In this document: piece by piece, positions 38,537-52,419 of the stretch
Layout of the letters: the number at the start of each line of letters is the position of its first letter
Numbering within the stretch: position 1 is the stretch's first letter
NCBI GenBank assembly: GCA_964566505.1
Contig: CAZMIM010000001.1
Span: forward strand, 199,690 to 263,689
From: an uncultured Candidatus Saccharibacteria bacterium
GTDB lineage: Bacteria > Patescibacteriota > Minisyncoccia > Phycocordibacterales > PCTT01
Length of the DNA stretch: 64,000 nucleotides
Direction of reading: 5' to 3'
Notes under the pieces: model-generated
Databases searched by the model: none
What the model was told of the DNA's origin: nothing
The model's input: only the letters and a program-made list of their open reading frames with translations
Program-made: the position numbers and the translations under genes

Positions 38537-38737
38537 TTACCAGTCTTCTTCTTCGTCATCGTCGAATGAAGGCATATCATCGTCTTCATCCTCTTCTTCG
38601 TCCTCATCAGAATCATCATCTTCCATTTCTTCGTCTTCCATTTCTTCATCCTCGAGGTCGAAGTCGTTTTCAAATTCTTCCATCATCATTTTGTTTGTGA
38701 TGTTAGTTCTTTTTGTTAATAGAACTGGCCCGTACAA
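38537..38737 (-). CDS. small, extremely acidic protein (Asp/Glu-rich tail ending in Trp)
   Basis: About 50-66 aa with about 60% D/E in the C-terminal 45 residues; the start is probably an internal Met. Confidence 0.4.
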   Translation of the reverse strand: MYGPVLLTKRTNITNKMMMEEFENDFDLEDEEMEDEEMEDDDSDEDEEEDEDDDMPSFDDDEEEDW

Positions 38738-38835: not shown

Positions 38836-39174
38836 CTATACAGAGGGGTCATTTACTTTATCCACATCTTGAATATTTTCTTGCCCTTTAATGCCCCACT
38901 GCCACTTTGGTTTTTCTCCCCTTTTATATGCAATACGTAAAAATGCAGATGTAAGAATTGCTACAGGTAAGAAAAAAGTAAATACCATTTCTTTTCCTGA
39001 GCTTGACTCATCAATAGTAAGTGCAAATAAGATCACAGCACCTAAAAATACAAGAGTAACTAGCCAACCTTGCCATGTTGCAGGTGTCCATCCCCAGCCA
39101 AAAATCTTTCGCTTAAACCAATACCCCTCTTGATTGTCTTTTAGATATGCGATATATCGGCTGAATATATTCAT
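38836..39174 (-). CDS. hypothetical membrane protein
   Basis: 112 aa, 2-3 TM helices. Confidence 0.4.
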   Translation of the reverse strand: MNIFSRYIAYLKDNQEGYWFKRKIFGWGWTPATWQGWLVTLVFLGAVILFALTIDESSSGKEMVFTFFLPVAILTSAFLRIAYKRGEKPKWQWGIKGQENIQDVDKVNDPSV

Positions 39175-39595: not shown

Positions 39596-39749
39596 GAGTT
39601 TATTATAACACCAGTTTTATAACTGGAGACTAGGTCACTCTCGTGGATATTTCGCTTGTTGGCCGACTCGGGCTAGAACCGTGTTCGGTCAAGCCCTGTT
39701 TGACGGAATAGCTCTATTTTACACCCATTAAACGACGCGTCTCGAGCGC

Positions 39750-40055
39750 TTAAGAAATAGTTTGTTTAGCCGATTCCTCGATCTCTTTTTCTAGGACTGA
39801 GATCTCCTGCTTTAAATCTCCATCCGACACTTCAATATCCCAACTCTTATTGGTGTTTGCATACCAAATACCTTTTCCGGAAAGTCTTGAGATGTGAATT
39901 CGCACCAAGCTCAATAGCTCTTTTGTTTCCTTTTCGAGTCTATCCATCAGACCGGGCATCTGAGCAAACGCACCTGTTATGTAGTGCCAGTTCTCAGCTT
40001 CAAGAACACGACCCCCGATCATAATATCTTCAAACCTGGTGAGAGTGTAATTCAT
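39750..40055 (-). CDS. hypothetical protein
   Basis: 101-aa ORF. Confidence 0.35.
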   Translation of the reverse strand: MNYTLTRFEDIMIGGRVLEAENWHYITGAFAQMPGLMDRLEKETKELLSLVRIHISRLSGKGIWYANTNKSWDIEVSDGDLKQEISVLEKEIEESAKQTIS

Positions 40056-40075
40056 GGATTGCGAATCTACATTGA

Positions 40076-40463
40076 TTAGGAGAAATATTGGTTAATAACA
40101 CTGAGGCTTCCCAGATCAATACTCAGTTCCTTTCTCACAGGAAGCTCTATAAGTCGGTTATGTGTTAGCTTGTGCGTTTCCAAGATCCTTTGGGTTTTCA
40201 AAGCATTTGTCCTGTTCAAACCTATAGTATCGATATGCTCATTTAACAACCTTTCTAAGATTACTAGCGCGTCACGATGCTTAATAAAACGCTCGTAGCG
40301 CTTTATGATGCGGTAACTCACGATACCAAAGAGAAAAGCAAAGAATGCTCCATAAACTTTTATGAATATTTGGCACCGCGAATAGAACCCAAATAAAAAA
40401 TACTGCGGTCCAGATAACAACTGCAAGTTCACGATTATTGAAAATACCAAGAATATCAAACAT
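40076..40463 (-). CDS. small 2-TM membrane protein downstream of and co-oriented with the STAND gene (two overlapping frames; possible frameshift)
   Basis: ORFs 40281-40463 and 40076-40459 overlap in different frames; both have TM segments. Confidence 0.3.
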
Positions 40464-40473
40464 GGTACTTCTA

Positions 40474-43400
40474 TTAACTTCGTCGACTTGTTACTTTCTT
40501 GGAGGATTTCTTTTTCGCTATTTTCTTTGTCGTCTTTTTGGCAACCTTCTTTTTAGGTGTAACAAACTTTGTACAGTCAATAGAAACAGGAGTGACTCCC
40601 TTTATCTTGCTAAATTCTTCTTTTATACGAGGAAGTGTCCGTATACTGCTATTAACAATAATGAGAAAGATGCCGTAATCTGCACCATACCCTCGCATGT
40701 ATTGACTCAAGCTCTTGTATGACTTTGAGGAGCTGACGCTTGTTGAACGAATGTCGCTATTTGATGTAAGTTTAACTTCCAAAATAACAGGACCTACAAA
40801 TCCGTATCGAATTATCAAATCGACTCGTTTGTCATCTAGCAAATCAGGCTCTCGCAAAAGATCAACGTGAAAACCTCGTTTAAGCATCACGTTTTCAATC
40901 TGTGATTTTAATGTCTTCTGAATCAATTTCTCGTACTCCTGTTTCTTCGTTTCGTAAATCTTACCTGTGAGAATAAGTTCATATGCTCCCTCTCCCTCAA
41001 TCCATCGACGTAAATCGGTATCAATCGCGTCATGTAAATGACGAGCCAGGTCTGCAGAAGTAATGATCCGCTTATCATCGTACTCCCGTGCTGAATTATA
41101 TTTTCGAACAGCTTCGGCAAACTGTGACGGTTTACCAATGGTATTGAGGTATGAACGGCGTAAGCTAACCATGCGAGCTGCAAGCCAATTCGCCCCCTCT
41201 TTTTTATTACCAACTAAAGCAATCTTTTCTTCAAGTAAACGCAAAGGCTTGTAGTCCCCATACTCTTTTAAGTTTTCGAAGTACGCATAAACTATTTCCC
41301 ATAAATATTGAGCATAAGGATGGTAACCGTCGCCGAGTGCCCAAACCTCGAGAGCCTTATCTATAAGATCTAAAAATTTTTCTTCGAATCCATAACTTTT
41401 TAATTCCATGAGTGGTTTTGCAAACTCTTTCCCAAAATGAAGTTCATCCTCAAAAGGCGTTACATCTTGAACAACACCAGATCTTGGTCTTATAGCACTT
41501 GCTGCAACTCTTGCCTGCACCTGTTCTAAGCGCCAATGTACTGCTTCTGGCTTAGCATACTTAGTAATGAGCAAACCATTAGCCTTTGTAGCAATAGCTT
41601 TCTCGTCATTAGACCCTTCTATGTATTCCGAAAAGATTTCCTTGAGGAAACCCTCATCCGGCTGAAGTAGTTCAGCCACAGACAAAGATTGCTCTCGATC
41701 ATACCTTCGGAATTGTGTCTCTCGCACAAAATCACGAAGGATCTGTCCAGCTGCAGTTAAATTATATTGCTCTGCTGCTTCGATAAGTGAGTCTGGTTGC
41801 CACCTCCACAAATCGCTATCTCGGTCGTTATAAATCCTTATCACAGAGTTTAGTTCTTCCGCAGAAAAATCGGGTACTAATTCAAACACGGTCTTTAAAT
41901 TTTCACTGTGCGCGAATGGTATAAAGCGAGCTATATTTGATCGATACGGTGTTATATCTATACCTCGATGTTTTGCTGCAGCAAGAGCATCTCCAAAAAC
42001 TATTGCTGCTCCGCTTGTAGTGTAGTTTCTGCTCGAACCTCCATCAGTCTCCGAATTTATTGTTAATCCGCGCTCTGCAGGATCGTGCCTAAGTACCTCC
42101 TGACGAATAAGCGTATCGAATCGCTCCCGATCAGCATCGCTCATTAATTTTTCGAGTTTCTCGACATTTGAATTGTAATCATGGAAAACTCGTGTCATGT
42201 ATTGTTGTGGAGCTGGTTCAAGTGCATTACGAAACTCCGAAAGAATTCTTTCATCGTACACATGCTCATGATCTGACGGTGGTTGTCTGCGTGCCTCCTC
42301 ATATTCTCTATAAGAATCAGGTAATTTTTCACGCCCTGCCTCATAAATAGCATCTGAGTCTTCGTCTCCTCGCAACTTAATACGAATTAAAGTATTCATT
42401 AAATGCATTTTGTGTAAGCCAGCTTCTAGCATCATATCTATATATTGACCAACATCAGACGGTGTGAGTATCTCTGCAAATAAATCTTGTGCAAAATATA
42501 AACCATTCTCTCCATCATCACTGTTCTGGATTTGACGAATGAGATTAGGAATAAAATCAGGATTCTCTTCACGCAAAAAATGCATTAATCCAATTACAAA
42601 CTGCGATTCTCCGCGTGTGTGTGCAACGGAGTAGTGTAAAGATTTTACAATTACCTCTAAGACAATTTCTCGCATCTCTTCGTCTGCAACAGCGCGAATA
42701 TGATCAACTAGCACATGGTCTTTGTCTTTGAAAATCGAGGAATCGTCCAGAAATTCCCTACGAAGTTGTTCATCTTCGTTATATTTTCGCAAGAAACGCT
42801 TCAGAGCACCGAGTCCCGTAACCTCGAAGAGTCCATATCTTCCGTGCAAATCATTGCTCCTTATGAGTTTTATGAATGCATCGACACTTTCATCTTTGTT
42901 AGGGTCAAGTTCACTACACAAAGAAACAAACTCCCTCATGACGAGTTCATCAGGAGCATTGGTCAAATCTGGTAATTCATCGATAACTGTCGGATCTCCA
43001 AGTTTTGCTAATGCCAATAATGCATGGCGCGGCAAGACTCCATTGTCAGATTGTCCAGATGCATAACTTATGAGCCGCCCACGCCAATAAGTGATATCAA
43101 TCTCCAATCCAGCACGTAATAAATAAGAAATTACATAAGATATGTTTCCTAAAGGAACATAGTACTTTGTTTCATTCGAGGTGAATGCCTCAGCCTCTTC
43201 AGTTTGTGCCTTTAAAAAAGATTCTAGGCTTGATGAATAGAACCCAGGAAGAGACGAGGTGAGCTGCCCAGGAATCCATTGTAATTTTGTATTGTGATAA
43301 GAAACAGAATCGATAAACAAACGCTCTTTGGTGGTGTCGGGAATAAATTTTGGATTAACTCTACTTAGGAAGTTGAAGAAGGCCTCGTCGACAACCTTAA

Positions 43401-44568
43401 ATGCCTGTCCATGAATTCCAGAGAAATCCAAAAGCTGACCGAGTATATCTCGATCCATATCAACAAAAAAACTAAGAGTGTTATACCAAGATGGATAAAA
43501 TTCATTTATCGTTTCGTCAGCAGCAAAACTAAAAGTTGCCCGTCTTGGTTCTGGGAATCGTGTCAATTCTTTTGCTGCAAGATATTCTTGAAATTCAGCA
43601 TTCTCAAATTCAATACTGTTCGTGTCCTCTTTTGAAATTTGCAATAATGAATTTTTCAAAAGGATATCGATACCTACTTGGGCAAGTACCATTAACTTGA
43701 TATCGGACCTTACATCGTCAAAAAAAGTTACTAACTCATCGCGAGTAATTGAATTCGCTTGATAAATCTCCATTGTCAAAGCCAACTTCTCCAACAGTCG
43801 CTTTAACACTTGCTCCATTTCACGAATATCTTGATTATTCTGAGCTTCAATTCTTAATTTTGAATAGATAAAATGTTCAAAAAGTTCATTTCTTGATATC
43901 TCCTGTACATCAGTAACTGACTTATCAGTCATAAACTGCTCAAAGAGAAAAAGATAGCGTGGAATTTGGATAATAATCCTTCCATGAAATTGCATTGCTC
44001 GCTGCATTAACACATCAATGTCAGCAGAGCTACGGCTTCCACTAGAGAGATATTCCCTGAGCTGATTCGAGGTAAATGGTTTTATGGAAATAAAACGATA
44101 TTTAGAAAAGACATTTGCATATCTTTCCATAAATACCCAACGACTTGATATATAAATAATTAGATTTGGGTACTGACGGGATATATTCTGGACCTCCTGA
44201 AGAATGTCAGAAAAATGTGATGAGGGAACCTCATCTAAAGCATCAAGTAATAATGCTTTTGGTTTCTTTGTTCCTTTCTTCACAAAGTTACTTATTTCCT
44301 CGAAAGAATTTGGAGATCGAAGAGGAATAAACTTAGTTGTAAATCCTTTGCTCTGAAATTCCACATCAATTCTCTTCATTAACTCTGTTTTGCCAATACC
44401 AGGCTCTCCAACCACTATCGTATTTTTATCTTGGGTAAGATCAGAGATAGTAGTTGGACTAGCATCGTCAAAAACAAAACCATGACCATATTTCCCATAC
44501 TCTTCTTTTGCCTCCTTAAAAGTAGAGGATACTTCTGTTACTGGGAATATATATCGAGAATCATCCAT
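40474..44568 (-). CDS. NACHT/STAND-family P-loop NTPase (1364 aa) with long alpha-helical middle region, C-terminal PD-(D/E)xK-like nuclease motif and Lys-rich tail
   Basis: Walker A GEPGIGKT and NACHT-type Walker B ALLLDALDE near the N-terminus; about 900 aa helical repeats; C-terminal RVDLIIRYGFVGPVILEVKL (D...E.K) then KKKVAKKTTKKIAKKKSSKK tail. Confidence 0.8.
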   Translation of the reverse strand: MDDSRYIFPVTEVSSTFKEAKEEYGKYGHGFVFDDASPTTISDLTQDKNTIVVGEPGIGKTELMKRIDVEFQSKGFTTKFIPLRSPNSFEEISNFVKKGTKKPKALLLDALDEVPSSHFSDILQEVQNISRQYPNLIIYISSRWVFMERYANVFSKYRFISIKPFTSNQLREYLSSGSRSSADIDVLMQRAMQFHGRIIIQIPRYLFLFEQFMTDKSVTDVQEISRNELFEHFIYSKLRIEAQNNQDIREMEQVLKRLLEKLALTMEIYQANSITRDELVTFFDDVRSDIKLMVLAQVGIDILLKNSLLQISKEDTNSIEFENAEFQEYLAAKELTRFPEPRRATFSFAADETINEFYPSWYNTLSFFVDMDRDILGQLLDFSGIHGQAFKVVDEAFFNFLSRVNPKFIPDTTKERLFIDSVSYHNTKLQWIPGQLTSSLPGFYSSSLESFLKAQTEEAEAFTSNETKYYVPLGNISYVISYLLRAGLEIDITYWRGRLISYASGQSDNGVLPRHALLALAKLGDPTVIDELPDLTNAPDELVMREFVSLCSELDPNKDESVDAFIKLIRSNDLHGRYGLFEVTGLGALKRFLRKYNEDEQLRREFLDDSSIFKDKDHVLVDHIRAVADEEMREIVLEVIVKSLHYSVAHTRGESQFVIGLMHFLREENPDFIPNLIRQIQNSDDGENGLYFAQDLFAEILTPSDVGQYIDMMLEAGLHKMHLMNTLIRIKLRGDEDSDAIYEAGREKLPDSYREYEEARRQPPSDHEHVYDERILSEFRNALEPAPQQYMTRVFHDYNSNVEKLEKLMSDADRERFDTLIRQEVLRHDPAERGLTINSETDGGSSRNYTTSGAAIVFGDALAAAKHRGIDITPYRSNIARFIPFAHSENLKTVFELVPDFSAEELNSVIRIYNDRDSDLWRWQPDSLIEAAEQYNLTAAGQILRDFVRETQFRRYDREQSLSVAELLQPDEGFLKEIFSEYIEGSNDEKAIATKANGLLITKYAKPEAVHWRLEQVQARVAASAIRPRSGVVQDVTPFEDELHFGKEFAKPLMELKSYGFEEKFLDLIDKALEVWALGDGYHPYAQYLWEIVYAYFENLKEYGDYKPLRLLEEKIALVGNKKEGANWLAARMVSLRRSYLNTIGKPSQFAEAVRKYNSAREYDDKRIITSADLARHLHDAIDTDLRRWIEGEGAYELILTGKIYETKKQEYEKLIQKTLKSQIENVMLKRGFHVDLLREPDLLDDKRVDLIIRYGFVGPVILEVKLTSNSDIRSTSVSSSKSYKSLSQYMRGYGADYGIFLIIVNSSIRTLPRIKEEFSKIKGVTPVSIDCTKFVTPKKKVAKKTTKKIAKKKSSKKVTSRRS

Positions 44569-44587
44569 AACAACAAATTATTACAAC

Positions 44588-44899
44588 CTACTTATGCCTA
44601 GCAGCACGAAGAAGTTTACGTGCCAAGGCCTCAAGCTCAGCGTCAGATCCTGCAGTTTTCTTCCTTACAGATTTTGAAGGTCGACCGAGAAAGTATTCGT
44701 AATCCTTCATAAACAAATCTGCGAGTATCACTAGATCTCTAATTTTCAAACTTCGCTCTCCTCTTTCAATAAGAGAAATAGCGGTTGGAGAATCAAATTC
44801 CAGTATTTGAGCAAGGTTTGTTTGTGAATATCCAGCTTCAAGTCGACATTCACGTATCTTCTCACCTAATTGTTTATCGAATTCATGGTCAGTCGCCAT
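44588..44899 (-). CDS. XRE-family helix-turn-helix transcriptional regulator
   Basis: HTH_XRE motif LGEKIRECRLEAGYSQTNLAQIL; 19 bp upstream of and co-oriented with the STAND gene. Confidence 0.75.
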   Translation of the reverse strand: MATDHEFDKQLGEKIRECRLEAGYSQTNLAQILEFDSPTAISLIERGERSLKIRDLVILADLFMKDYEYFLGRPSKSVRKKTAGSDAELEALARKLLRAARHK

Positions 44900-45020
44900 A
44901 ACTACTGCATTATATTATCCACAATTTGATTTGAAAAGATTAATCAAAATGATAAACTTGTTTATATAAGGAGTAGTGGTAGCAATCAAGCAATTAGAAG
45001 AATCATTATGAAAACAGCAT

Positions 45021-46289
45021 ATGAAAAAACTTGCTTGGTCTACAACCCAACAAAAGGTTAACGATCTGCTCCCCCAGGAGGTTAATCCCCGCACTATTTC
45101 CGACAAGCAAATGTCGGATCTTAAAAGAAGCCTCAAGAAATACAATCTTGTGGAGATTCCCGCTATTGATGTAGATGGGACGATATTAGCTGGTCATCAG
45201 CGTATTAAGGCACTGCAACTCCTTGGGCGCGGTGAGGATATGATTGATGTCCGTGTACCCAACCGAAAACTCACCAAGGAAGAATCTAAAACATATCTCA
45301 TAGCGTCCAACAAGCTTGGCGGTGACTGGGATTTTGATCTTCTGAAGTCTTTTGATTTCGATACCTTGGAGTTCGCAGGGTTTGATCCCATCGAAGTCGG
45401 GGAACTCTTCGACAGAGATAACGAAGTTGCCGAAGAAGACTTTGATGTTGAGAAAGAACTAAAAAAGATTAAGAAGCCAAAAACAAAGCTTGGCGACATC
45501 GTTGTTCTTGGTAATCACCGTATTCTATGTGGCGACTCCACTAAGAAAGAGAACCTGAAGAGACTCTTCGGGAACAAAAAGGCATCGATGATATACAGCG
45601 ACCCTGTATACAACATTGATATCGACTATGACGGTGGTATTGGCGGAAAGAAAGAATACGGCGGAGATGTAAACGATACACGTTCGTTCGATGAGTACCG
45701 CACATTCCTCAACGACAGCATGGAAGCAGCACTTGCCGTTTCCAAAGAAGACCTACATATCTTCTATTGGTGCGATCAGATATACATCGGCGTTGTACAA
45801 AACCTGTACCGGTGGCTTGGTATTGCTAATAAGCGTGTGTGTTTGTGGCTCAAGAATAATCAGAACCCTGTTCCCTCGGTTGCGTTCAATAAAGCGTATG
45901 AACCTGCGGTATACGGCGTACGAGGCAAACCATACCTCGCCAACATACATAACCTCAACGAGGTAATGAATAAGGAACTCGGTACTGGCAATTCCCTGCT
46001 CGACGACATCTGGACAGCAAAACGTCTGACCGCCAAAGAGTACGAGCACGCCACATCAAAACCGCCACAGCTTCACGAGAAAGCGATTAAACGCTGCACC
46101 AAACCAAACGACATTATTCTCGACAGTTTCCTTGGTTCTGGCAGCACCCTTATTGCCGCAGAATCACTTGGTCGAAGAGTATATGGGTGTGAACTTGAAC
46201 CTGCGTTCTGCGATCTCATCGTTCGGAGATGGGAAAAGCTAACAGGCAAGAAAGTGTCCTATGAAAAAGACAAAGGTACTGGTAAATAA
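45021..46289 (+). CDS. ParB-like nuclease domain fused to a DNA methyltransferase (N6-A/N4-C class)
   Basis: N-terminal ParB/Srx fold (EIPAIDVDGTILAGHQRIKA); MTase motif IV-like SDPVYN and motif I LDSFLGSGSTLIAAE. Confidence 0.75.
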   Translation: MKKLAWSTTQQKVNDLLPQEVNPRTISDKQMSDLKRSLKKYNLVEIPAIDVDGTILAGHQRIKALQLLGRGEDMIDVRVPNRKLTKEESKTYLIASNKLGGDWDFDLLKSFDFDTLEFAGFDPIEVGELFDRDNEVAEEDFDVEKELKKIKKPKTKLGDIVVLGNHRILCGDSTKKENLKRLFGNKKASMIYSDPVYNIDIDYDGGIGGKKEYGGDVNDTRSFDEYRTFLNDSMEAALAVSKEDLHIFYWCDQIYIGVVQNLYRWLGIANKRVCLWLKNNQNPVPSVAFNKAYEPAVYGVRGKPYLANIHNLNEVMNKELGTGNSLLDDIWTAKRLTAKEYEHATSKPPQLHEKAIKRCTKPNDIILDSFLGSGSTLIAAESLGRRVYGCELEPAFCDLIVRRWEKLTGKKVSYEKDKGTGK

Positions 46290-46830
46290 ACTGCTTGCGG
46301 AAATTGAGAAAGCTCCTGTTATACAAGTGGCGTGCGATAAGGTAGGTATCTCAAGAAACACCTTCTACCGTTGGATCAAAGAGGACTCTGAGCTTATGGA
46401 GCGCATGAGTGAAGCCATGTCTCTTGGCACTGGGTTGGCAAATGATGTTGCGATAAGTAACGTTTTAGAGGGTGTAAAAAGAAAAGATCCGATGTACACA
46501 AAGTACTGGCTGAGCCACAAACATCCTGACTTCAGGAGACCCTTCGTCCATAAGGTTGACTCTGATGATCTACTCACTCATTTCCGGTCTGTTATGGAAG
46601 GTATACGGAAACGTGAAATTGCTCAAGAAATTGCAGATGAAGCAACCAGAATTGAAGGCGTAAGATTAGAGAAGGCACGAGAAGAAGTACAGGGATTCAT
46701 GGACAAGTGGAAAAATGTAATAAGCGAATCTCAACACAAAGAAGCCAGGAAACTATTCGAAGAATGGAAAGAAGACTTCCTCAGTGAAAAAGCTAGCCAA
46801 GCACAGCGCCTTAAAAAGCCAAAGAAATAA
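46261..46830 (+). CDS. HTH-domain protein resembling phage terminase small subunit / DNA-packaging HTH proteins
   Basis: N-terminal HTH VACDKVGISRNTFYRWIKED; overlaps the MTase gene end by 29 bp. Confidence 0.45.
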   Translation: MKKTKVLVNKLLAEIEKAPVIQVACDKVGISRNTFYRWIKEDSELMERMSEAMSLGTGLANDVAISNVLEGVKRKDPMYTKYWLSHKHPDFRRPFVHKVDSDDLLTHFRSVMEGIRKREIAQEIADEATRIEGVRLEKAREEVQGFMDKWKNVISESQHKEARKLFEEWKEDFLSEKASQAQRLKKPKK

Positions 46831-47173
46831 ATCCCCAAATAGTTATTACAACGAACACAGCAATAATGATCCAATACTTCTTGTTCCTTCTTGTGGTTTC
46901 TTGTTTTTCTTCCGCAATAACTTCTTCAATATCTTTTTCAGAATCCATTTCTTGAAGAATCTTCTTTGCTCTTGGCGAGTCTAAAGGAATCATGTCTGTA
47001 CTCTGACATTTTGCACATGCCGGGTGATACGAACTAGATCGCCATACTGAATAAATAAGACCAGGAACAAGAAAGCAGAGCCATAGTACGATTTCAACAC
47101 CAAGACTTCCTTTTGCTAATCTTTTCGGTTTACCAACGTGACCGCACTGGGTACAAATTAATGTTTTTGCCAT
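46811..47173 (-). CDS. zinc-ribbon plus TM small protein
   Basis: CTQCGH...CAKCQS Cys4 ribbon followed by two TM helices. Confidence 0.4.
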   Translation of the reverse strand: MAKTLICTQCGHVGKPKRLAKGSLGVEIVLWLCFLVPGLIYSVWRSSSYHPACAKCQSTDMIPLDSPRAKKILQEMDSEKDIEEVIAEEKQETTRRNKKYWIIIAVFVVITIWGFISLAF

Positions 47174-47503
47174 AGATTTTTTAATGACGAATAAATCTTA
47201 TGGCGGGTAACAAAAAGCCCGCCACCAAGTAGAGCCGAAGCTCATATCCCAAGTTTCCCTGGAATAGCTCAAGGAGAGACCCTTGATGACGGGTTCTTTA
47301 TTCTCCTTGAGACTTTTATATTCGGACCATACCGCCACAAACGTGTCGGGTTAGGTCGCTATATTGTGATGTCGAGCTCTTCGCTCAACATATACATAAT
47401 ATCGCTAAATAAAGGTGGTGTTAAGCAAGAAGCGAGTATGCGACGAATCACTGGTTCTGCATAGCTTAGCAAGACTAGTTTTCTCTGGCATTAATGGTTC
47501 CCT

Positions 47504-48883
47504 ATGGAACTAGCGAATATTACTCAATCAGCGTCTCAGCAAGCTGTCCAAATTGAGAAAGTAAAATATGTACTTTATGCTCGTAAATCGACCGAGCAAG
47601 ATGAGAAACAAGCACTCTCAATTGAGTCTCAAGTTAAAGAAATGCTTGCAATAGCTGAGCGAGAGAATCTAGAGATTGTTGATATTAGACGTGAGTCCCA
47701 CTCAGCAAAAAACTCGGGACAACGACCAGTCTTTAAAGAAATTCTTGAGGATATACGAAGAGAACGGTTCAACGGAATTCTCGTTTGGCATCCAGATAGA
47801 CTCAGCAGAAACGCTGGAGACTTAGGATCAGTTGTTGACCTTATGGACGAGAAATTACTTGTCCAAATAAGAACATACAGCCAAATATTCACCAACAACC
47901 CAAATGAGAAATTCCTCCTTATGATTCTTTGTTCTCAAGCGAAACTTGAGAACGACAACAAAAGCATCAACGTAAAGCGTGGTTTGAGGACAAGAGTTGA
48001 AATGGGACTTTGGCCAGCCCCTGCTCCAACTGGATATTTGAAAGAAAAACGAATGGATCGTAAATGCGAAACCATCATTGATCCAGAACGAGCGCCGGTT
48101 ATTAAACAAATGTTTGAGAAAGTCGCCTATGAAAAGTGGTCGGGGCGCAAACTCTATAACTGGCTCAAATTTGATCTCAATTTCAAAACTGTTGGAGGAA
48201 ACAAGAATCTCACGCTAGGAAATATCTATGTCATCCTCCAAAATCACTTTTACTACGGCACATTTGAATATCCAAAGAAGAGCGGTAATTGGTATCAAGG
48301 AAAACACAAACCAATCATCACTAAAGAGCTTTTTGATCAGGCACAGATGCAGCTTAAAGGAAACGAGCTAAAGACTCGAAAAGAAAAAGAGTTTGCGTTC
48401 ACAAGGCTAATGATCTGCGGACTCTGTGGATCTGGAATTACCGCTGATGAAAAATACAAAAAATTGAAAGACGGCACTGTAAACACTCACATATACTATG
48501 GCTGCACTAAAGTACGAGATAGAAACTGTAAGTGTGGCTACATTAACGAAGCTGATTTGATAGCTCAGTTTGAGAAGCTAATTGATGAGATTAATTTGGA
48601 TGAAATTGGTATTAAAGAAAAGATTAAACAGGAAGTGGTTCGTTTCAAGAAATTTCAGCAAATGCTAGTAGGTAATATCCAGAAAATTGAAGTGGTAGAT
48701 ATAGATATACGAAATTATACGATATATCTTCTTAGAGAAGGTTCGATAGCAGAAAAACGAGAGCTGTTGGGTAATTTAAAAAGCAAAATTTTCCTTGCGA
48801 ATAAAGAAATTAGGCTTTCTCAAGATCTAACCTCTTTAGAGTCATTGCATTCACAACGACAATCACCGTTGAGAGGCTCATGA
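47504..48883 (+). CDS. large serine recombinase (resolvase/invertase catalytic domain, recombinase domain and zinc-ribbon)
   Basis: Catalytic YARKSTEQDE...SIESQ; C-terminal CGLCGS...YYGCTK...CKCG zinc ribbon; coiled-coil tail. Confidence 0.85.
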   Translation: MELANITQSASQQAVQIEKVKYVLYARKSTEQDEKQALSIESQVKEMLAIAERENLEIVDIRRESHSAKNSGQRPVFKEILEDIRRERFNGILVWHPDRLSRNAGDLGSVVDLMDEKLLVQIRTYSQIFTNNPNEKFLLMILCSQAKLENDNKSINVKRGLRTRVEMGLWPAPAPTGYLKEKRMDRKCETIIDPERAPVIKQMFEKVAYEKWSGRKLYNWLKFDLNFKTVGGNKNLTLGNIYVILQNHFYYGTFEYPKKSGNWYQGKHKPIITKELFDQAQMQLKGNELKTRKEKEFAFTRLMICGLCGSGITADEKYKKLKDGTVNTHIYYGCTKVRDRNCKCGYINEADLIAQFEKLIDEINLDEIGIKEKIKQEVVRFKKFQQMLVGNIQKIEVVDIDIRNYTIYLLREGSIAEKRELLGNLKSKIFLANKEIRLSQDLTSLESLHSQRQSPLRGS

Positions 48884-50795
48884 CAAGCGCACCTATTTCA
48901 GGGCGCAAAAAGAAACCCCACACAGCAAATACTCCGGCTGCTGCGGGAATGGCAACGATATTGTACCCAAGTGCCCAGACGAGGTTCTGAATCATCTTTG
49001 CGTATACCTTCTTTGAGAGCGTTATGAGGCGCACGATATCTTGAGGGTCATTGTCGGTAAGCACCACATCGCCAGATTCAACCGCGACATCGGTGCCTGC
49101 GCCAATGGCGACTCCTGCGTCGGCTTGTGTGAGTGCAGGAGCATCGTTCACTCCATCACCGACCATAAGCACTACACTGCCATCCTCCTGAAGCTTCTTG
49201 ATGTGAGTGTATTTATCTTCCGGCAAGACATTTGCAAAATAGGTATCAATGCCAAGTTCTTCTGATACCGACTGTGCGACCTGTTCGTTGTCGCCGGTAA
49301 GCATAGCGACTTTCACACCCATGCCGTGTAGCTTTTGGACCGCCTCCTTTGAAGATTCTTTTATCGCATCGGAGAGAACCAGATATCCGAGCACCGCTTC
49401 CTTACTTGCTACAAAGACGAGCGTGCCATTTAGATTAGTGGGAGCGTCAAGATGTAAGTTTAAACTTCGAACCAGACGTTCGTTTCCTGCAAAGTATTCC
49501 GTGCCCTCAATTTCTGCTTTCACACCCTGTCCTGCAACATTTTGAAAATTATCAATATCGGAAATAGATACCTTTTGCTCTCGTGCATATTTGAGTATTG
49601 ACTGTCCGATGATATGTGAAGAATGCTGTTCGAGAGACGCTGCGATGGAGAGAATGTTGTTTGTATCTTGCTCTGCCAGAGGAATAACATCGGTCACGCC
49701 GAATTCTCCCTTAGTGAGCGTTCCTGTCTTATCAAACACTACATAGTCAGCTTTTCGTATTGTCTCTATCTTCGAAAGGTCTTTGATGAAAAATCCGTTC
49801 TTCACGGCAAGTGACGTGGTGATGGTTGTCACTGTAGGAATCGCAAGACCAAGCGCATGCGGACATGCAATAACGAGCACCGTAATAGCGAGCGTCACAG
49901 CGAACACAAACGGCTGACCGATCACTAGTGTCCACACGAGAAGCGTACCGAGTGCCGTGATGCCAGCAACAAAGGTGAGTACGGCAGATGCTTTATCCGC
50001 AATTCTCTGTGAACGTGGCTTTGTTTGACCGGCTTGTGCTATGAGCTTTTGTATTTGCCCGACTGTTGAATGCTCTCCAACACGGGAGAGCTTGATGGTA
50101 AGCGATCCATCAAGACAAATTGATCCCGCGACCACTTGAGCATCCACTTCTTTCTTCACCGGCTTTGACTCACCGCTTATAAGCGACTCATCTACATTTG
50201 CGAATCCTTTGGTAATAACACCATCCGCTGGAATCTTTTCACCCGGCTTCACTATGACAATATCGCCCTCCTGAAGCTCGGCGATATCGACATCAACTTC
50301 CGTGCCATTCTCAAGCTTATGCGCTTTCTTCGGCAAGAGCTTTGCGACTTCGGAGAGCGCATCTCCTGCAGCAGAGCTTGATTTGGCCTCGAGGTAATGT
50401 CCGAAAAGAAGTACCCACACGAGGGTGGAGATTTCAAGATAAAACTCAGCATGAAGTGAGGTAATAAACGTTGAGGCAACGGAAAAAAGATACCCGCTAC
50501 CCACCGCAAGCGACACGAGTGTCATCATGCCGTATTTGCGAGATTTTATTTCATGCCACGCGTGCTGGAAGAATACGAGCGCAAACCCAAAGATAATTGT
50601 TGCAATCCCAAACTGTATCCACTTGTTAAGTCCGAAGGAGATGCCAAGTATCTCTGATACTTTCGGATGTACGAGTACGAGTGGAATGAGGAGAAATGTG
50701 ACAATCCAGAATCGTCTTAAGTACTGCGCGGCAGATCCGTGACTCATTCCATGTGCTCCATGACTTGCGTGATTGTGATGGTGCTCATGTGCCAT
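48810..50795 (-). CDS. copA: copper-translocating P1B-type ATPase (no N-terminal HMA domain; His-rich N-terminus)
   Basis: CPH motif (IACPHALGLAIP), DKTGTLT, GDGVNDAPAL; N-terminal MAHEHHHNHASHGAHGMSH. GC is noticeably higher than the surrounding genes. Confidence 0.88.
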   Translation of the reverse strand: MAHEHHHNHASHGAHGMSHGSAAQYLRRFWIVTFLLIPLVLVHPKVSEILGISFGLNKWIQFGIATIIFGFALVFFQHAWHEIKSRKYGMMTLVSLAVGSGYLFSVASTFITSLHAEFYLEISTLVWVLLFGHYLEAKSSSAAGDALSEVAKLLPKKAHKLENGTEVDVDIAELQEGDIVIVKPGEKIPADGVITKGFANVDESLISGESKPVKKEVDAQVVAGSICLDGSLTIKLSRVGEHSTVGQIQKLIAQAGQTKPRSQRIADKASAVLTFVAGITALGTLLVWTLVIGQPFVFAVTLAITVLVIACPHALGLAIPTVTTITTSLAVKNGFFIKDLSKIETIRKADYVVFDKTGTLTKGEFGVTDVIPLAEQDTNNILSIAASLEQHSSHIIGQSILKYAREQKVSISDIDNFQNVAGQGVKAEIEGTEYFAGNERLVRSLNLHLDAPTNLNGTLVFVASKEAVLGYLVLSDAIKESSKEAVQKLHGMGVKVAMLTGDNEQVAQSVSEELGIDTYFANVLPEDKYTHIKKLQEDGSVVLMVGDGVNDAPALTQADAGVAIGAGTDVAVESGDVVLTDNDPQDIVRLITLSKKVYAKMIQNLVWALGYNIVAIPAAAGVFAVWGFFLRPEIGALVMSLSTVIVVVNAMTLKRLDLEKA

Positions 50796-50797
50796 AG

Positions 50798-51295
50798 TTA
50801 GATCGTCATAAATACTTCACCCTTTGCGCCATCGTGGGTGATCTCATAGATAACAAAATCAGACGTTTTTGGTCCGGGCATTCCTGGAGAGCCAGAGGGC
50901 ATACCTGCCATGCCGATACCTTTGATGTCGGGACGTTCAGCAAGTAATTTCTGAACCGCTTCCTCCGGTACGTGCCCCTCAACAACATAGCCGTCAATTT
51001 CCATTGTGTGACAACTCTCAAGCTCGTATGGCACATCGAATTGCTCTTTGATCGACTGCATGTCTGCTATGCCCTCAATATCAACACCGTATCCTTTCTT
51101 CTCTAAGTACGCTGCGTATTGTCCGCAACATCCGCAACTTGGTGATTTATAAATTGTCGCCAGGAGCCCGTTCGCAGGAGCTTCAGAGATTGTGTCTCCT
51201 TTTGGGAGTGTTTGCATCGCCATGACACCGATAACACCGATGACTGCAACAACGAGTATGCCGATAATAAGGTTGCTCTTCATACTAGTTTTCAT
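50798..51295 (-). CDS. DUF411 domain metal-binding protein (copper-resistance associated)
   Basis: SPSCGCCGQY and ESCHTMEIDGYVVEGHVP motifs of DUF411; signal/TM N-terminus. Confidence 0.65.
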   Translation of the reverse strand: MKTSMKSNLIIGILVVAVIGVIGVMAMQTLPKGDTISEAPANGLLATIYKSPSCGCCGQYAAYLEKKGYGVDIEGIADMQSIKEQFDVPYELESCHTMEIDGYVVEGHVPEEAVQKLLAERPDIKGIGMAGMPSGSPGMPGPKTSDFVIYEITHDGAKGEVFMTI

Positions 51296-51758
51296 TGAAC
51301 CATGTTTGTAGCCAACCTTTCATTTGCTCAACTTCAGCTGACTGACTTGCAATGATGTTGTTTGCAAGTTCAATAAGCTCTGGGCGATCTGTCTGCTCTA
51401 GTAGGTTCTCTGACATTCTGATCGCACCAAGATGATGTACAATCATGCCGCGAAGCCATGCCTCCTCGTATGCATCACCAGTTTGTCCGCGACCAATAAG
51501 CATCATTTCATCCATCATGTGCATCAATTCGCCATCACCGTTCACGATTTCATCTTCGTAAGAACCTCCCATGTGTTCTTCCATTTCCTCGTACATGGAT
51601 TCATTTGAGAAGAAACCGCGATGCGGCATATTGTTGGCACCAAAGAAGTAGCCGAGAAGCAGGCCGACGATAAGGGCGAGAAGACCAATAATGATTGTTT
51701 GATTTTTGTTTTCCATACTATTTTTTCTTAGCTTTATTAAATATACTGATAATCTCAC
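51285..51758 (-). CDS. DUF305 domain protein (copper-resistance associated)
   Basis: GMIVHHLGAIRMSE matches the DUF305 HH..M core; N-terminal TM. Confidence 0.65.
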   Translation of the reverse strand: MRLSVYLIKLRKNSMENKNQTIIIGLLALIVGLLLGYFFGANNMPHRGFFSNESMYEEMEEHMGGSYEDEIVNGDGELMHMMDEMMLIGRGQTGDAYEEAWLRGMIVHHLGAIRMSENLLEQTDRPELIELANNIIASQSAEVEQMKGWLQTWFNEN

Positions 51759-51996
51759 TGATCGCTTTTTTCTCCTGCCCCTGTTTCATCTGATGAATGA
51801 CGTGCTCGGAGAGGTGATTCTCAAGCATCAGATCCTCAACGGCCGAGAGTGCGCTGCGTACTGCGGATGACTGCGTAATAATATCTACGCAGTACTGCTC
51901 CTCATCGACCATCTTTTGGAGTCCGCGTACCTGACCCTCAACGCGCCGGAGACGATTTTGCACCTGTTTTTTGGTAGCTGCTTTCATATGCAACAT
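51718..51996 (-). CDS. csoR: CsoR/RcnR-family metal-sensing transcriptional repressor
   Basis: LRRVEGQVRGLQKMVDEEQYCVDIITQSSAVRSAL with conserved Cys/His metal ligands; the start is probably the second ATG (51987). Confidence 0.85.
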   Translation of the reverse strand: MLHMKAATKKQVQNRLRRVEGQVRGLQKMVDEEQYCVDIITQSSAVRSALSAVEDLMLENHLSEHVIHQMKQGQEKKAISEIISIFNKAKKK

Positions 51997-51998
51997 AT

Positions 51999-52015
51999 TA
52001 TACCCCTAGGGGGTA
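51999..52015. promoter_or_regulatory. CsoR-type operator ATACCCCTAGGGGGTAT overlapping a TATAAT -10 box immediately upstream of csoR
   Basis: GC-rich interrupted palindrome of the ATACCCnnnGGGGTAT type used by CsoR family repressors; minus-strand reading GTATACCCCCTAGGGGTATAAT-ATG. Confidence 0.6.
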
Positions 52016-52183
52016 TACGTGTACAGGTGGTATCCACAACAAGAAAGTCACCCGTTCGGGGGTGACTTTCTTGTTTGATTACTGCACTCAGCAGGTATGC
52101 AATTTATCGGAATAGATAATCAATCGGCTTTTTGACGATTCTCGTGCGCTCGTGGAGCGTAGAGATCTCGTGCTAGCTCGATT

Positions 52184-52257
52184 TGGCTGCCGGACAGGGA
52201 CTCGAACCCCGATTTCTTGGACCAAAACCAAGCGTCCTGCCATTAGACGATCCGGCA
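52184..52257 (-). tRNA. tRNA-Gln (anticodon UUG), U1-A72 pair, G73, CCA encoded
   Basis: UGCCGGA/UCCGGCA acceptor, anticodon stem CUUGG/CCAAG with loop UUUUGGU, T-arm CGGGGUUCGAGUCCCUG. Confidence 0.85.
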
Positions 52258-52316: not shown

Positions 52317-52349
52317 AATCTTGCAAGCATCCTACCATTAGACGATCCG
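52317..52349 (-). repeat. 30-bp direct duplicate (1 mismatch) of the tRNA-Gln 5' end plus 4-nt upstream flank; head of a degenerate pseudo-tRNA (about 52262-52349)
   Basis: cct[g/a]ccattagacgatccggcaatgtatt occurs at 52232-52264 and 52317-52349; the downstream part has lost the anticodon and T-arm pairing. Confidence 0.6.
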
Positions 52350-52419
52350 GCAATGTATTACCTAAAAACTGGCAATATACAAAACAGATTACCGTAGTAA
52401 TCTGCTTTGTGCAACGAAT

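Follow-up and report, generated by a model that had tools for sequence, protein, structure and literature searches.

Capsid-forming phage-inducible chromosomal islands (cf-PICIs) have a large terminase (TerL) together with sets of capsid, portal and protease genes, and P4-like satellites have defined cargo hotspots. Two other groups of satellites, the PICI-like elements of Vibrio (PLEs) and the marine virion-encapsidated integrative mobile elements (VEIMEs, module 3), use a large serine recombinase (LSR), and some of them have homologues of the small terminase (TerS) and defence genes (PMC6002521; PMC9618062). The candidate phyla radiation (CPR, or Patescibacteria) comprises a large share of bacterial diversity and is characterized by tiny genomes, few recognised mobile elements and a little understood exchange of defence and resistance genes. 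In this work, a 64,000-nt stretch of contig CAZMIM010000001.1 from an uncultured Candidatus Saccharibacteria bacterium (assembly GCA_964566505.1) was analysed, referred to as the window; all coordinates are positions in it. The region 39664-52182, ~12.5 kb in length under either of the crossover models discussed below, is probably one integrated copy of a family of CPR mobile islands; it adjoins a tRNA-Gln gene, and satellite-like spread is the most likely way in which the family moves. In this family, a serine integrase goes together with phage DNA-packaging genes, with a structured RNA linked to it (LOOT) and with exchangeable defence or metal-resistance cargo. The identities of the genes, the recurrence of the module in varying context and with varying cargo, the linkage of LOOT, the end motifs and the orientation of the tRNA are directly established, and mobility is strongly implied by the comparative genomics. 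Neither such a family of CPR elements nor a link between LOOT and a recombinase was found described in the literature covered by a full-text search.

The integrase gene (rec; Table 1) encodes a protein, Rec, with the Resolvase (PF00239, 9.5e-24), Recombinase (PF07508, 1.9e-13) and Zn_ribbon_recom (PF13408, 7e-8) domains of Pfam and a match to the integrase family phrog_95 of PHROGs (9e-68). The segment YARKST...SIESQ corresponds to the catalytic region of serine recombinases, with S29 as the nucleophile, and residues Y25, R27, S29, D98, R99 and R102 are invariant across 30 Rec homologues. The closest solved structures are those of the LSR of SPbeta (SprA/YokA; 5e-16, profile over residues 15-410) and of the TP901-1 integrase. 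Rec is a bona fide LSR, and the three Pfam domains together with the invariant catalytic residues bear out the initial annotation of the window, made from the letters alone, which had reported a large serine recombinase with a C-terminal zinc ribbon. The best 120 database proteins are all 73-85% identical to Rec and carry the names of many CPR lineages, Moraniibacteriota, Parcubacteria and WS5 among them. In a one-genome-per-species collection the family is represented by at least 568 loci, nearly all of them in metagenome-assembled genomes (MAGs) of Patescibacteria, and ~60 further contigs are found in IMG/VR. A number of Rec/TerL loci belong to MAGs that bear other labels, namely Nanoarchaeia, Woesearchaeota, Omnitrophota, Gammaproteobacteria, Bdellovibrionales or Dysgonamonadaceae (L061, L047, L010, L035, L064 and protein P0118; L-numbers denote fetched loci and P-numbers proteins); mis-binning of CPR contigs or true movement of the genes between phyla or domains could account for them. 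Two copies of the recombinase family per genome, and sometimes per contig, have also been observed, often each with its own packaging module (L020/L029, L007/L018, L168/L175, L177/L184, L201/L202, L204/L205 and L225/L226); these pairs fit the presence of multiple or tandem elements in one genome.

The backbone of the element starts with a fusion of a ParB/Srx domain to a beta-class N6/N4 DNA methyltransferase (MTase). The protein matches phrog_498 (DNA methyltransferase; 4e-90, residues 8-419) and the PADLOC profile MTase_II (1e-65), and its ParB-like N-terminus, unseen by Pfam, is detected by phrog_620 of PHROGs (3e-25, residues 8-149). It carries the ParB motif GHQR, followed by SDPVYN (motif IV) and FLGSGST (motif I), motif IV preceding motif I. 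These are common forms within the family, SDPVYN being the commonest form of motif IV (16 of the 32 members in which the pattern matched, out of 50 examined). The ParB-MTase fusion with these two MTase motifs, recognised at the outset, is thus upheld by the motifs and by both PHROGs matches. The enzyme is an orphan, with no restriction enzyme partner adjacent to it in the window or in relatives. In phages, ParB-domain proteins frequently accompany terminase genes, and a role in packaging has been proposed for them; the MTase could also protect the DNA of the element.

The next gene encodes a helix-turn-helix (HTH) protein whose resemblance to terminase small subunits had likewise been noticed from the sequence, and this resemblance is supported by PHROGs and by the gene order of the relatives, in most of which homologues precede TerL; the Pfam match to Sf6_terminase (5e-4) lies under the gathering score. 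The protein is 38-42% identical to the 132-147-aa TerS encoded directly upstream of TerL in relatives, full-length homologues of the long form are present in L015 and L029 (54-58% identity), and the long form has 86 database homologues, most of them of 150-197 aa. In the AlphaFold2 model an HTH is followed by an 85-residue helix, and the top Foldseek matches of this model are small terminases (Sf6 gp1, phBC6A51), with non-significant E-values above 1. A search of the window by tblastn with two TerL queries detected no TerL, and the TerS-like gene here does not lie upstream of a terL gene. In ~30 fetched genome loci that have both genes, TerS is located directly upstream of TerL and co-oriented with it.

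Mapping of 84 Rec-anchored loci reveals that the usual module is co-linear and consists of ParB-MTase, TerS, TerL (475-479 aa; phrog_38, 3e-75) and Rec. The MTase is present in 48 of these loci, adjoining TerS, and in 44 loci TerS follows the MTase, usually together with TerL. Of the loci in which the upstream sequence is long enough (64), the full MTase-TerS-TerL set lies upstream of Rec in 29 (37 including near-complete sets), MTase-TerS without TerL in 10, and Rec stands alone in 17. Since the module is kept where Rec is only 43-50% identical, the linkage is old. TerL belongs to the ancestral module and is missing from the window copy, and the TerL-less form, as judged from the sequences compared, is itself conserved, with a distinct TerS-like protein of 180-196 aa. 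The window copy belongs to this sub-form and is an ordinary, apparently intact member of it.

The islands of the family are 7-20 kb in size. In the window, Rec, an HTH protein of the XRE family and the TerS-like gene lie within 12.5 kb, with no capsid, portal or tail families according to Pfam, PHROGs and clustering of open reading frames (ORFs); neither portal, capsid, tail nor lysis genes were detected in the window (Pfam, PHROGs) or in any relative examined, and no recurrent cluster of such genes was found among 1608 clustered ORFs. Long intervals between TerL and Rec, when checked, contain mainly Type I, Type III and other genes resembling those of restriction-modification (R-M) systems, plus a PIF1-like helicase, and no structural genes. 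A helper phage or a complete prophage was also sought among the relatives of TerL, and none was found: the TerL relatives in IMG/VR are all parts of the same Rec-linked modules, and the best matches among INPHARED phages are only distant. Relaxase, oriT and type IV secretion or coupling families are likewise absent from the ORFs of the element according to Pfam, which sets it apart from integrative and conjugative or mobilizable elements.

The phage-type genes, the TerL-less state of the window copy, the overlap of rec with the neighbouring copA gene, the altered C-terminus of Rec and the viral classification of related contigs in IMG/VR could all be accommodated by a decaying prophage remnant, that is, a temperate CPR phage that has been stripped of its structural genes, is no longer mobile and carries its cargo by chance. 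Such a remnant is, however, improbable, given that hundreds of species-level genomes contain this short arrangement with its ORFs intact and at full length, that no relative with structural genes after TerL was found, and that the TerL-less form, including its full-length TerS-like protein, and the end motifs are conserved. The claims that this backbone is that of a mobile element and that an integrative element with defence and metal-resistance cargo occupies ~40-52 kb gain support from the recurrence of the same backbone in hundreds of CPR genomes, beside different genes and with different cargo, and from the end motifs at 39.66-52.18 kb; the five ORFs described in the initial annotation are all present exactly as described. 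Packaging of the element via a helper phage, as suggested by the gene content, is a serious possibility that falls just short of being probable.

A further component of the backbone is LOOT, the name of which refers to the OD1, OP11 and TM7 lineages. In Rfam this family is listed merely as a small RNA, and the main text of the paper that defined it does not discuss it. In the window, LOOT (Table 1) lies within the 330-nt gap between the gene of a zinc-ribbon protein and rec, 147 nt from the start of rec and 58 nt from the ORF downstream of the RNA. The initial annotation had proposed to look for att sites near 47.2-47.5 kb; none was identified there, and the interval holds LOOT instead. The Rfam model detects LOOT beside Rec in eight other loci as well, and our own covariance model, built from nine copies and searched against 85 sources (the 84 Rec-anchored loci and the window), detects it in 42. 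About 30 of the 42 copies are located 135-220 nt upstream of Rec on the opposite strand, and six are located 45-100 nt downstream of Rec on the same strand, so that in both arrangements LOOT is transcribed away from Rec. An ORF begins 41-80 nt after LOOT in 21 of the 28 cases in which a downstream ORF was called; its family varies, and it often encodes a small membrane or zinc-ribbon protein. In the alignment of the 42 Rec-linked copies, which had been fitted to the model, 90.5% of the cells are paired, compared to 30-45% in slid controls, and 26 of the 28 pairs show double (compensatory) changes. LOOT is a backbone component at the edge of a cargo slot (slot b, see below), and it might act as a leader or regulator at the junction between rec and the cargo, a role that we propose with low confidence. 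A guide or bridge function of LOOT with respect to the att sites was considered and rejected: when the longest shared or complementary stretches were compared between the distal end of a locus and its own LOOT or the LOOT of other loci, there was no consistent signal, and only the window has a 10-mer.

The ends of the element were recognised by comparison of non-coding sequences. The distal end region, D, was first found as a blastn match of window positions 39656-39747 to L002, which has two copies, and L005. The motif reads TTGCTGGCCGTCTCGNG-CTAG-AACCGTGGTCGGTCAAGCCCTG, with a second GTCTCGNGC box ~60 nt further in. Searches with nhmmer detected D in ~28 Rec loci, always on the strand of Rec and in 27 of them 1-10 kb upstream of it; the exception is L007, where D comes after Rec and a copper cluster. 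The window contains a single copy, and 100 shuffled sequences contained none. The conservation of D ends abruptly at its outer edge, and the TTGGC at 39659-39663 repeats the 3' terminus of the tRNA-Gln. The possibility that D is a structured RNA was rejected, as it matches no Rfam family, has fold z-scores of -0.2 and -0.8 and displays no compensatory pattern by eye.

At the other side of the element, the tRNA-proximal end region, T, contains the sole exact match to the core in the window (52166-52176), 8 nt from the tRNA-Gln, and D and T have CTAGCNCGAGAC in common in direct orientation. The relationship with tRNA genes is general: in all 48 loci with a tRNA in range, the nearest tRNA past Rec lies on the other strand and its 3' end points to Rec (Ser 24, Gln 16, Trp 3, Glu 3, Asn 1, Asp 1), and a palindromic trailer, CCA-AGTCGTG-CTAG-CACGAGAC, directly follows the tRNA in 25 of the 48, compared to 2 of 197 other tRNAs in the fetched loci. 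Moreover, the outermost letters of D track the type of the tRNA, with CCAGC in Gln loci and CCCGC in Ser loci, and the D tail fits the tRNA terminus of its own locus better than those of other loci with the same tRNA type (permutation p = 0.009; examples are CAGCTTTGT in L041, CGAGCCA in L025 and GCCAA in the window). The tRNA-Gln(UUG) is the probable integration target in the window. Taken from these patterns, it is very likely that the island is mobilised by the LSR and targets tRNA 3' ends, with recombination predicted to occur at the end sites. The preferred position of the crossover is the 3' terminus of the tRNA, in which case the trailer and the body of D would be the two ends of the element; the reconstructed joint of these ends is a 28-32-bp quasi-palindrome around a tRNA-end-like core. 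LSRs recombine attP and attB sites of ~40-50 bp, which are imperfect inverted repeats with a central dinucleotide. The alternative, a crossover within the shared CTAG, fits the covariation of the inner arm of D with the tRNA-side arm in the 'CTTGAG' loci; the attB/attP hybrids that it predicts are present in no fetched locus. The second interval in which att sites had been anticipated, 52.0-52.4 kb, does contain a candidate site (52.17-52.19 kb), with its counterpart at 39.66-39.70 kb.

L002, with its two copies of D, and L007, in which a T-like trailer abuts D, both appear to have accumulated islands in tandem at a single tRNA. The 5' half of the tRNA-Gln, together with 7 nt of its upstream flank, recurs as a 36-nt copy (94% identical) at 52324-52359, 59 nt upstream of the intact tRNA-Gln. 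In L114 the situation is mirrored: the 3' half of its tRNA-Gln is duplicated as a 43-nt copy, after which come a T-like trailer and purD. These half copies may be scars of earlier recombination at a hotspot.

The chromosomal context was examined in a metagenomic scan anchored on FtsX, which yielded 80 loci, the closest FtsX being 53-65% identical. The 80 relatives keep the synteny of the right-hand flank, in the order tRNA-Thr, an ORF, FtsE, FtsX and, a few kb on, tRNA-Gln. None of them contains the D motif, and a close Rec homologue is present in only one (L095), directly after the tRNA-Gln. A comparison with related genomes had been suggested as a check of the mobile-element assignment, and its outcome favours this assignment. 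Two relatives without the family of the window have a distant serine recombinase (33-35% identical) directly after the tRNA-Gln (L091, 8815-9804; L152, 5976-7094). It seems that, in these bacteria, LSR elements in general favour the 3' flank of the tRNA-Gln as a hotspot. The gene on the left flank of the island (38836-39174) has a homologue ~2 kb from the tRNA-Gln in three relatives, which gives a weak indication that the two flanks of the window were once neighbours. L114, with its T-like trailer and no island, was considered as an empty site and set aside as ambiguous because of its duplicated tRNA half. Look-ups of exact proteins returned no record of the Rec or FtsE of the window, and the exact Gmad2 and TerS-like proteins occur only in contigs of ~1.2-1.3 kb; full identity (100%) between the window and the contig encoding Gmad2 indicates the presence of the same strain in SRR15635857, SRR15635848 and SRR15635858. 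Just outside the island, an almost wholly acidic 66-aa ORF with a DEEMEDEEMEDDDSDEDEEEDEDDD run (38537-38737, minus strand) overlaps a Ser-rich ORF on the opposite strand; it may be low-complexity sequence without coding function.

These comparisons also bear on whether the region is mobile at all. If it were a resident part of the chromosome, Rec would be a domesticated housekeeping or phase-variation enzyme and the MTase would belong to a core R-M system. The conservation of Rec across lineages, unusually high at 73-85% identity, would agree with that; the block is nevertheless absent from FtsX-syntenic relatives, the flanking genes differ among genomes, several contigs carry two copies, no gene of a restriction enzyme lies beside the MTase, and no pair of inverted repeats bracketing an invertible segment was found, all of which renders a resident region extremely improbable. 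Neither the universal synteny nor the core R-M membership that the initial annotation had named as arguments against an element was found: relatives do not show the block in synteny, and the MTase lacks a partner restriction enzyme both here and in them.

Around the backbone, three cargo slots can be distinguished: slot a extends from D to the repressor, slot b from TerL or LOOT to Rec, and slot c from Rec to the tRNA. The features of the window copy are listed in Table 1.

Table 1. Features of the inferred element and of its target tRNA, in the order of their coordinates in the window
Feature	Coordinates	Strand	Evidence or description
Distal end region D	39656-39749	+	Conserved ~45-nt motif 39656-39703 plus second GTCTCGAGC box 39733-39749
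D core ACTCGGGCTAG	39666-39676		
D arm AACCGTGTTCGGTCAAGCCCTG			Resembles tRNA 3' end
Two small ORFs, 101 aa and 127 aa (slot a)	39750-40459	-	ORF calls; downstream of STAND gene
STAND-type P-loop NTPase, 1364 aa, HEAT-like repeats (slot a)	40474-44568	-	Weak nSTAND3/NACHT/AAA matches, below Pfam thresholds
XRE-family HTH protein	44588-44899	-	Pfam HTH_31 2e-8, HTH_3 2e-7; divergent from MTase
ParB/Srx-domain + beta-class N6/N4 DNA methyltransferase fusion	45021-46289	+	Pfam N6_N4_Mtase 1e-31; first backbone gene
TerS-like HTH protein, 189 aa	46261-46830	+	PHROGs TerS phrog_4102 2e-9; long form typical of TerL-less variants
Zinc-ribbon protein, 120 aa (slot b)	46811-47173	-	ORF call; two CxxC pairs and transmembrane/hydrophobic segments
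LOOT RNA (Rfam RF03000)	47231-47357	-	51.8 bits vs gathering score 46.4
Large serine recombinase (Rec), 459 aa	47504-48883	+	Pfam, PHROGs, structure match
Copper-resistance cargo (slot c)	48810-51996	-	Pfam
P1B-type ATPase (copA)	48810-50795	-	
DUF411	50798-51295	-	
DUF305	51285-51758	-	
CsoR	51718-51996	-	
tRNA-proximal end region T	52137-52183	+	TCTCGTGCGC 52140-52149; core TCTCGTGCTAG 52166-52176, within tRNA-Gln trailer; TTGGC 52183-52187
tRNA-Gln(UUG)	52184-52257	-	ARAGORN, Rfam; 3' end facing element

The XRE-family HTH gene and the MTase gene are divergent, with a gap of 121 nt, and the HTH protein also gives HTH, CapH and control-protein matches in PADLOC. In relatives, the position next to the MTase is taken by an XRE HTH with or without an M78 peptidase, or by a LexA/S24 protein; because it occupies this repressor slot, the HTH protein of the window is probably the master repressor of the element, and it may also be co-transcribed with the gene of the STAND NTPase. 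Of the HTH-STAND operon that had been proposed to face the backbone genes, the divergence from the MTase and the STAND neighbour are retained, and the assignment of the HTH protein solely as a partner of the STAND NTPase is given up in favour of a probable element regulator, as judged from the slot. The STAND NTPase, for which PADLOC matches are only marginal, is a candidate defence cargo, and the two small ORFs of slot a match no family of Pfam or PADLOC. In relatives, slot a contains Shedu SduA, CBASS (CD-NTase/SMODS with Cap15 or SAVED), Thoeris ThsB, and caspase-like or ThiF genes.

The zinc-ribbon protein of slot b has no family match in Pfam or PHROGs. Its homologues are encoded behind LOOT in L003 and L015, and unrelated small membrane proteins are found there in other loci; the inclusion of this gene in the backbone by the initial annotation is therefore abandoned, and it is regarded as the variable first gene of the cargo slot behind LOOT. 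Slot c of the window contains a copper-efflux operon, and homologues of CopA and/or CsoR are present downstream of Rec in 13 other loci (L001, L002, L007, L015, L024, L027, L034, L039, L053, L074, L076, L217 and L251); in another locus, slot c is occupied by a Type I R-M system with Shedu. Two contigs with an identical Rec (P0055) are 89% identical at the DNA level over a stretch that starts ~90 nt before the MTase and closes with the end of Rec, and their left-hand regulators and cargo are entirely different. Interspecies DNA homology frequently ends within a few bases of the stop codon of Rec. The identical Rec with different left-hand cargo and the end of homology at this stop codon indicate that the backbone is a stable unit with recombination-prone edges. 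An inverted repeat, ATACCCC-TAG-GGGGTAT, at 52000-52016, 4 nt upstream of the start codon of CsoR (51996), resembles a CsoR operator that would serve the copper operon. A hairpin with a perfect 16-bp stem and a 6-nt loop, followed by TTTG, lies at 52038-52075, between CsoR and the tRNA-Gln/T region, and looks like a terminator insulating the tRNA from the copper operon. Proteins without an assigned function, of 135 aa and of 258-276 aa, recur in the family.

The life cycle that we propose from these data would be as follows. The LSR would integrate the element, as a circle, where a tRNA gene ends, at its 3' terminus or trailer (in the window tRNA-Gln; in other loci Ser, Trp or Glu). The tRNA-proximal end of the integrated element would start with the palindromic (A)AGTCGTG-CTAG-CACGAGAC, and the distal end would close with ...GGGCTTGACCGACCACGGTT-CTAG-CNCGAGAC-GGC, after which the tRNA terminus would be repeated over 4-9 nt. 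When circularised, the ends would form a ~32-bp quasi-palindrome round a tRNA-end-like core, the attP architecture expected for an LSR; the predicted joint of the circle, on the strand of the tRNA, is ...GGTTCTAGCCCGAGTCGGCCAA / ATCGAGCTAGCACGAGATC..., and the predicted empty site is tRNA-Gln ...CCGGCAGCCAA / CAAGCGAAATATCCACGAG... (the slash marks the point of joining). The XRE repressor, replaced elsewhere by LexA/S24 or by HTH+M78, would silence the element, and ParB-MTase with TerS, joined by TerL in most members, would form a phage-type unit for DNA recognition and packaging. The absence of structural genes, the repressor slot and the size of 7-20 kb point to a satellite-like life cycle using helper capsids, in which the element would spread as a phage satellite, its DNA being packaged into capsids that a helper phage provides; lacking TerL, the window copy would need the large terminase of the helper, as in SaPI-type satellites. 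The slots would carry exchangeable cargo, in this case the STAND NTPase, the small zinc-ribbon membrane protein and the copper-efflux operon.

Several observations weigh against this scheme. No empty attB was recovered in a close relative; the FtsX relatives, at 53-65% identity, are too distant to provide the exact empty site. The circular junction was searched for in IMG/VR with two predicted attP patterns and the D arm, all of which are absent; a palindrome, TCGTGCTAGCACGAGA, was also considered as a joint of the circle and was rejected, matching only unrelated conserved sequence that is not linked to tRNA or Rec. The repeats of the tRNA terminus are short, 4-9 nt, and part of the covariation fits a crossover in the shared CTAG and another part a crossover at the terminus of the tRNA. 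The rec ORF overlaps the convergent copA by 74 nt (48810-48883), and Rec of the window has ~18 extra C-terminal residues with respect to the family consensus, which ends in ...NKxIxLxx; the overlap and the extension suggest that recombination joined the sequences precisely at the natural stop codon of Rec, the point at which homology between species is lost as well, and the window copy could be rearranged there. A primase, helicase or ori-type replication module was not found in the window element or among the recurrent clusters (Pfam, protein clustering), no recombination directionality factor (RDF) was identified in the element, and no helper phage was identified, Rec and TerL being only ~25% identical to their best matches in INPHARED phages. 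Finally, a satellite that encodes TerL and has no capsid genes fits no satellite family known to us.

Alternatively, the family could be an island independent of phages, similar to the staphylococcal cassette chromosome (SCC), which the LSR excises and integrates at tRNA genes and which is transferred by other routes, such as natural transformation or vesicles, with MTase-TerS-TerL serving, for example, as an anti-packaging defence or in protection or partition of its own DNA. Natural transformation has been reported for some CPR bacteria. In favour of this reading, no helper phage was identified; the 17 loci with Rec and without MTase, TerS and TerL, some of which have D and T (for example L038 and L052), indicate that the packaging module is unneeded for the integrated state; defence genes dominate the cargo; and the layout parallels that of SCC, in which an LSR and cargo are likewise present and copies stand in tandem where a conserved gene has its 3' end (L002, L007). 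However, intact TerS and TerL are tightly co-inherited with Rec down to 43% Rec identity, for which a role in the transmission of the element itself is the simplest explanation, and the module is of the kind found in phages according to PHROGs. We therefore regard the SCC-like scenario as unlikely, albeit less so than a prophage remnant, and retain satellite-like spread as the favoured reading.

If correct, a single family found at hundreds of loci, in which the backbone is fixed, the ends are defined and the cargo has three slots, would explain much of the gene traffic in CPR bacteria. The link with a recombinase places the LOOT RNA, an orphan since 2017, in a concrete and testable context for the first time. 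A set of closely related serine integrases with predictable, tRNA-linked att sites could aid the engineering of CPR bacteria, in which genetic manipulation is difficult, and the use of integrases in general, and TerL-based pipelines such as IMG/VR likely count these islands as viruses. On a more speculative note, which we put forward with considerable doubt, the islands might be the main vehicle of horizontal transfer in the CPR and form a new class of capsid-less, terminase-encoding satellites that target tRNA trailers, with LOOT as a partner of the integrase, for instance as a regulator of rec and cargo or as a cofactor of the cargo-capture slot (cf. intI/attI of integrons).

With respect to known systems, the family shares with PICIs, including the SaPIs (Staphylococcus aureus pathogenicity islands), and with cf-PICIs the size of ~7-20 kb, the integrase at one end, the divergent repressor, a small terminase of its own of the kind that redirects packaging, the lack of tail and lysis genes and the accessory cargo that includes defence genes, and the TerS-only form of the window resembles SaPIs. 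It differs from them in having an LSR instead of a tyrosine recombinase, no recognised primase or replication module, CPR hosts, and a backbone that includes ParB-MTase and a linked structured RNA; unlike cf-PICIs, most CPR members have TerL without capsid, portal and protease genes. The LSR-encoding PLEs integrate into Vibrio repeats rather than tRNA trailers, have no terminase genes and encode proteins that are not closely related to those of the CPR family; encapsidation of VEIMEs and PLEs has been shown experimentally, whereas for the CPR family it is a prediction. Among phage LSRs, those of SPbeta (SprA/YokA), TP901-1, A118, phiC31 and Bxb1 have the same three-domain architecture, and the reconstructed attP of the CPR element is predicted to be quasi-palindromic as well; in contrast to these enzymes, to which identity is only ~25%, the CPR recombinase has its target at the 3' terminus or trailer of a tRNA, with no RDF identified. 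In SCC and SCCmec, an LSR (Ccr) likewise inserts the element at the 3' end of a conserved gene, with short direct repeats, tandem accretion and resistance or defence cargo (PMC11470126); the target of SCC, however, is rlmH and not a tRNA, and SCC has neither phage packaging genes nor a linked non-coding RNA. The Tycheposons of Prochlorococcus are islands that likewise adjoin tRNA genes, in genomes that are streamlined, and their cargo separates the core module from the tRNA (bioRxiv 10.1101/2020.12.28.424599). Tycheposons and P4-like satellites differ from the CPR family in that they mostly use tyrosine recombinases and other core genes, and the trio of ParB-MTase, TerS and TerL is unreported for them. 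By analogy, the element would thus work most like the PICI/SaPI, PLE and VEIME satellites and would integrate most like SCC or tRNA-linked islands.

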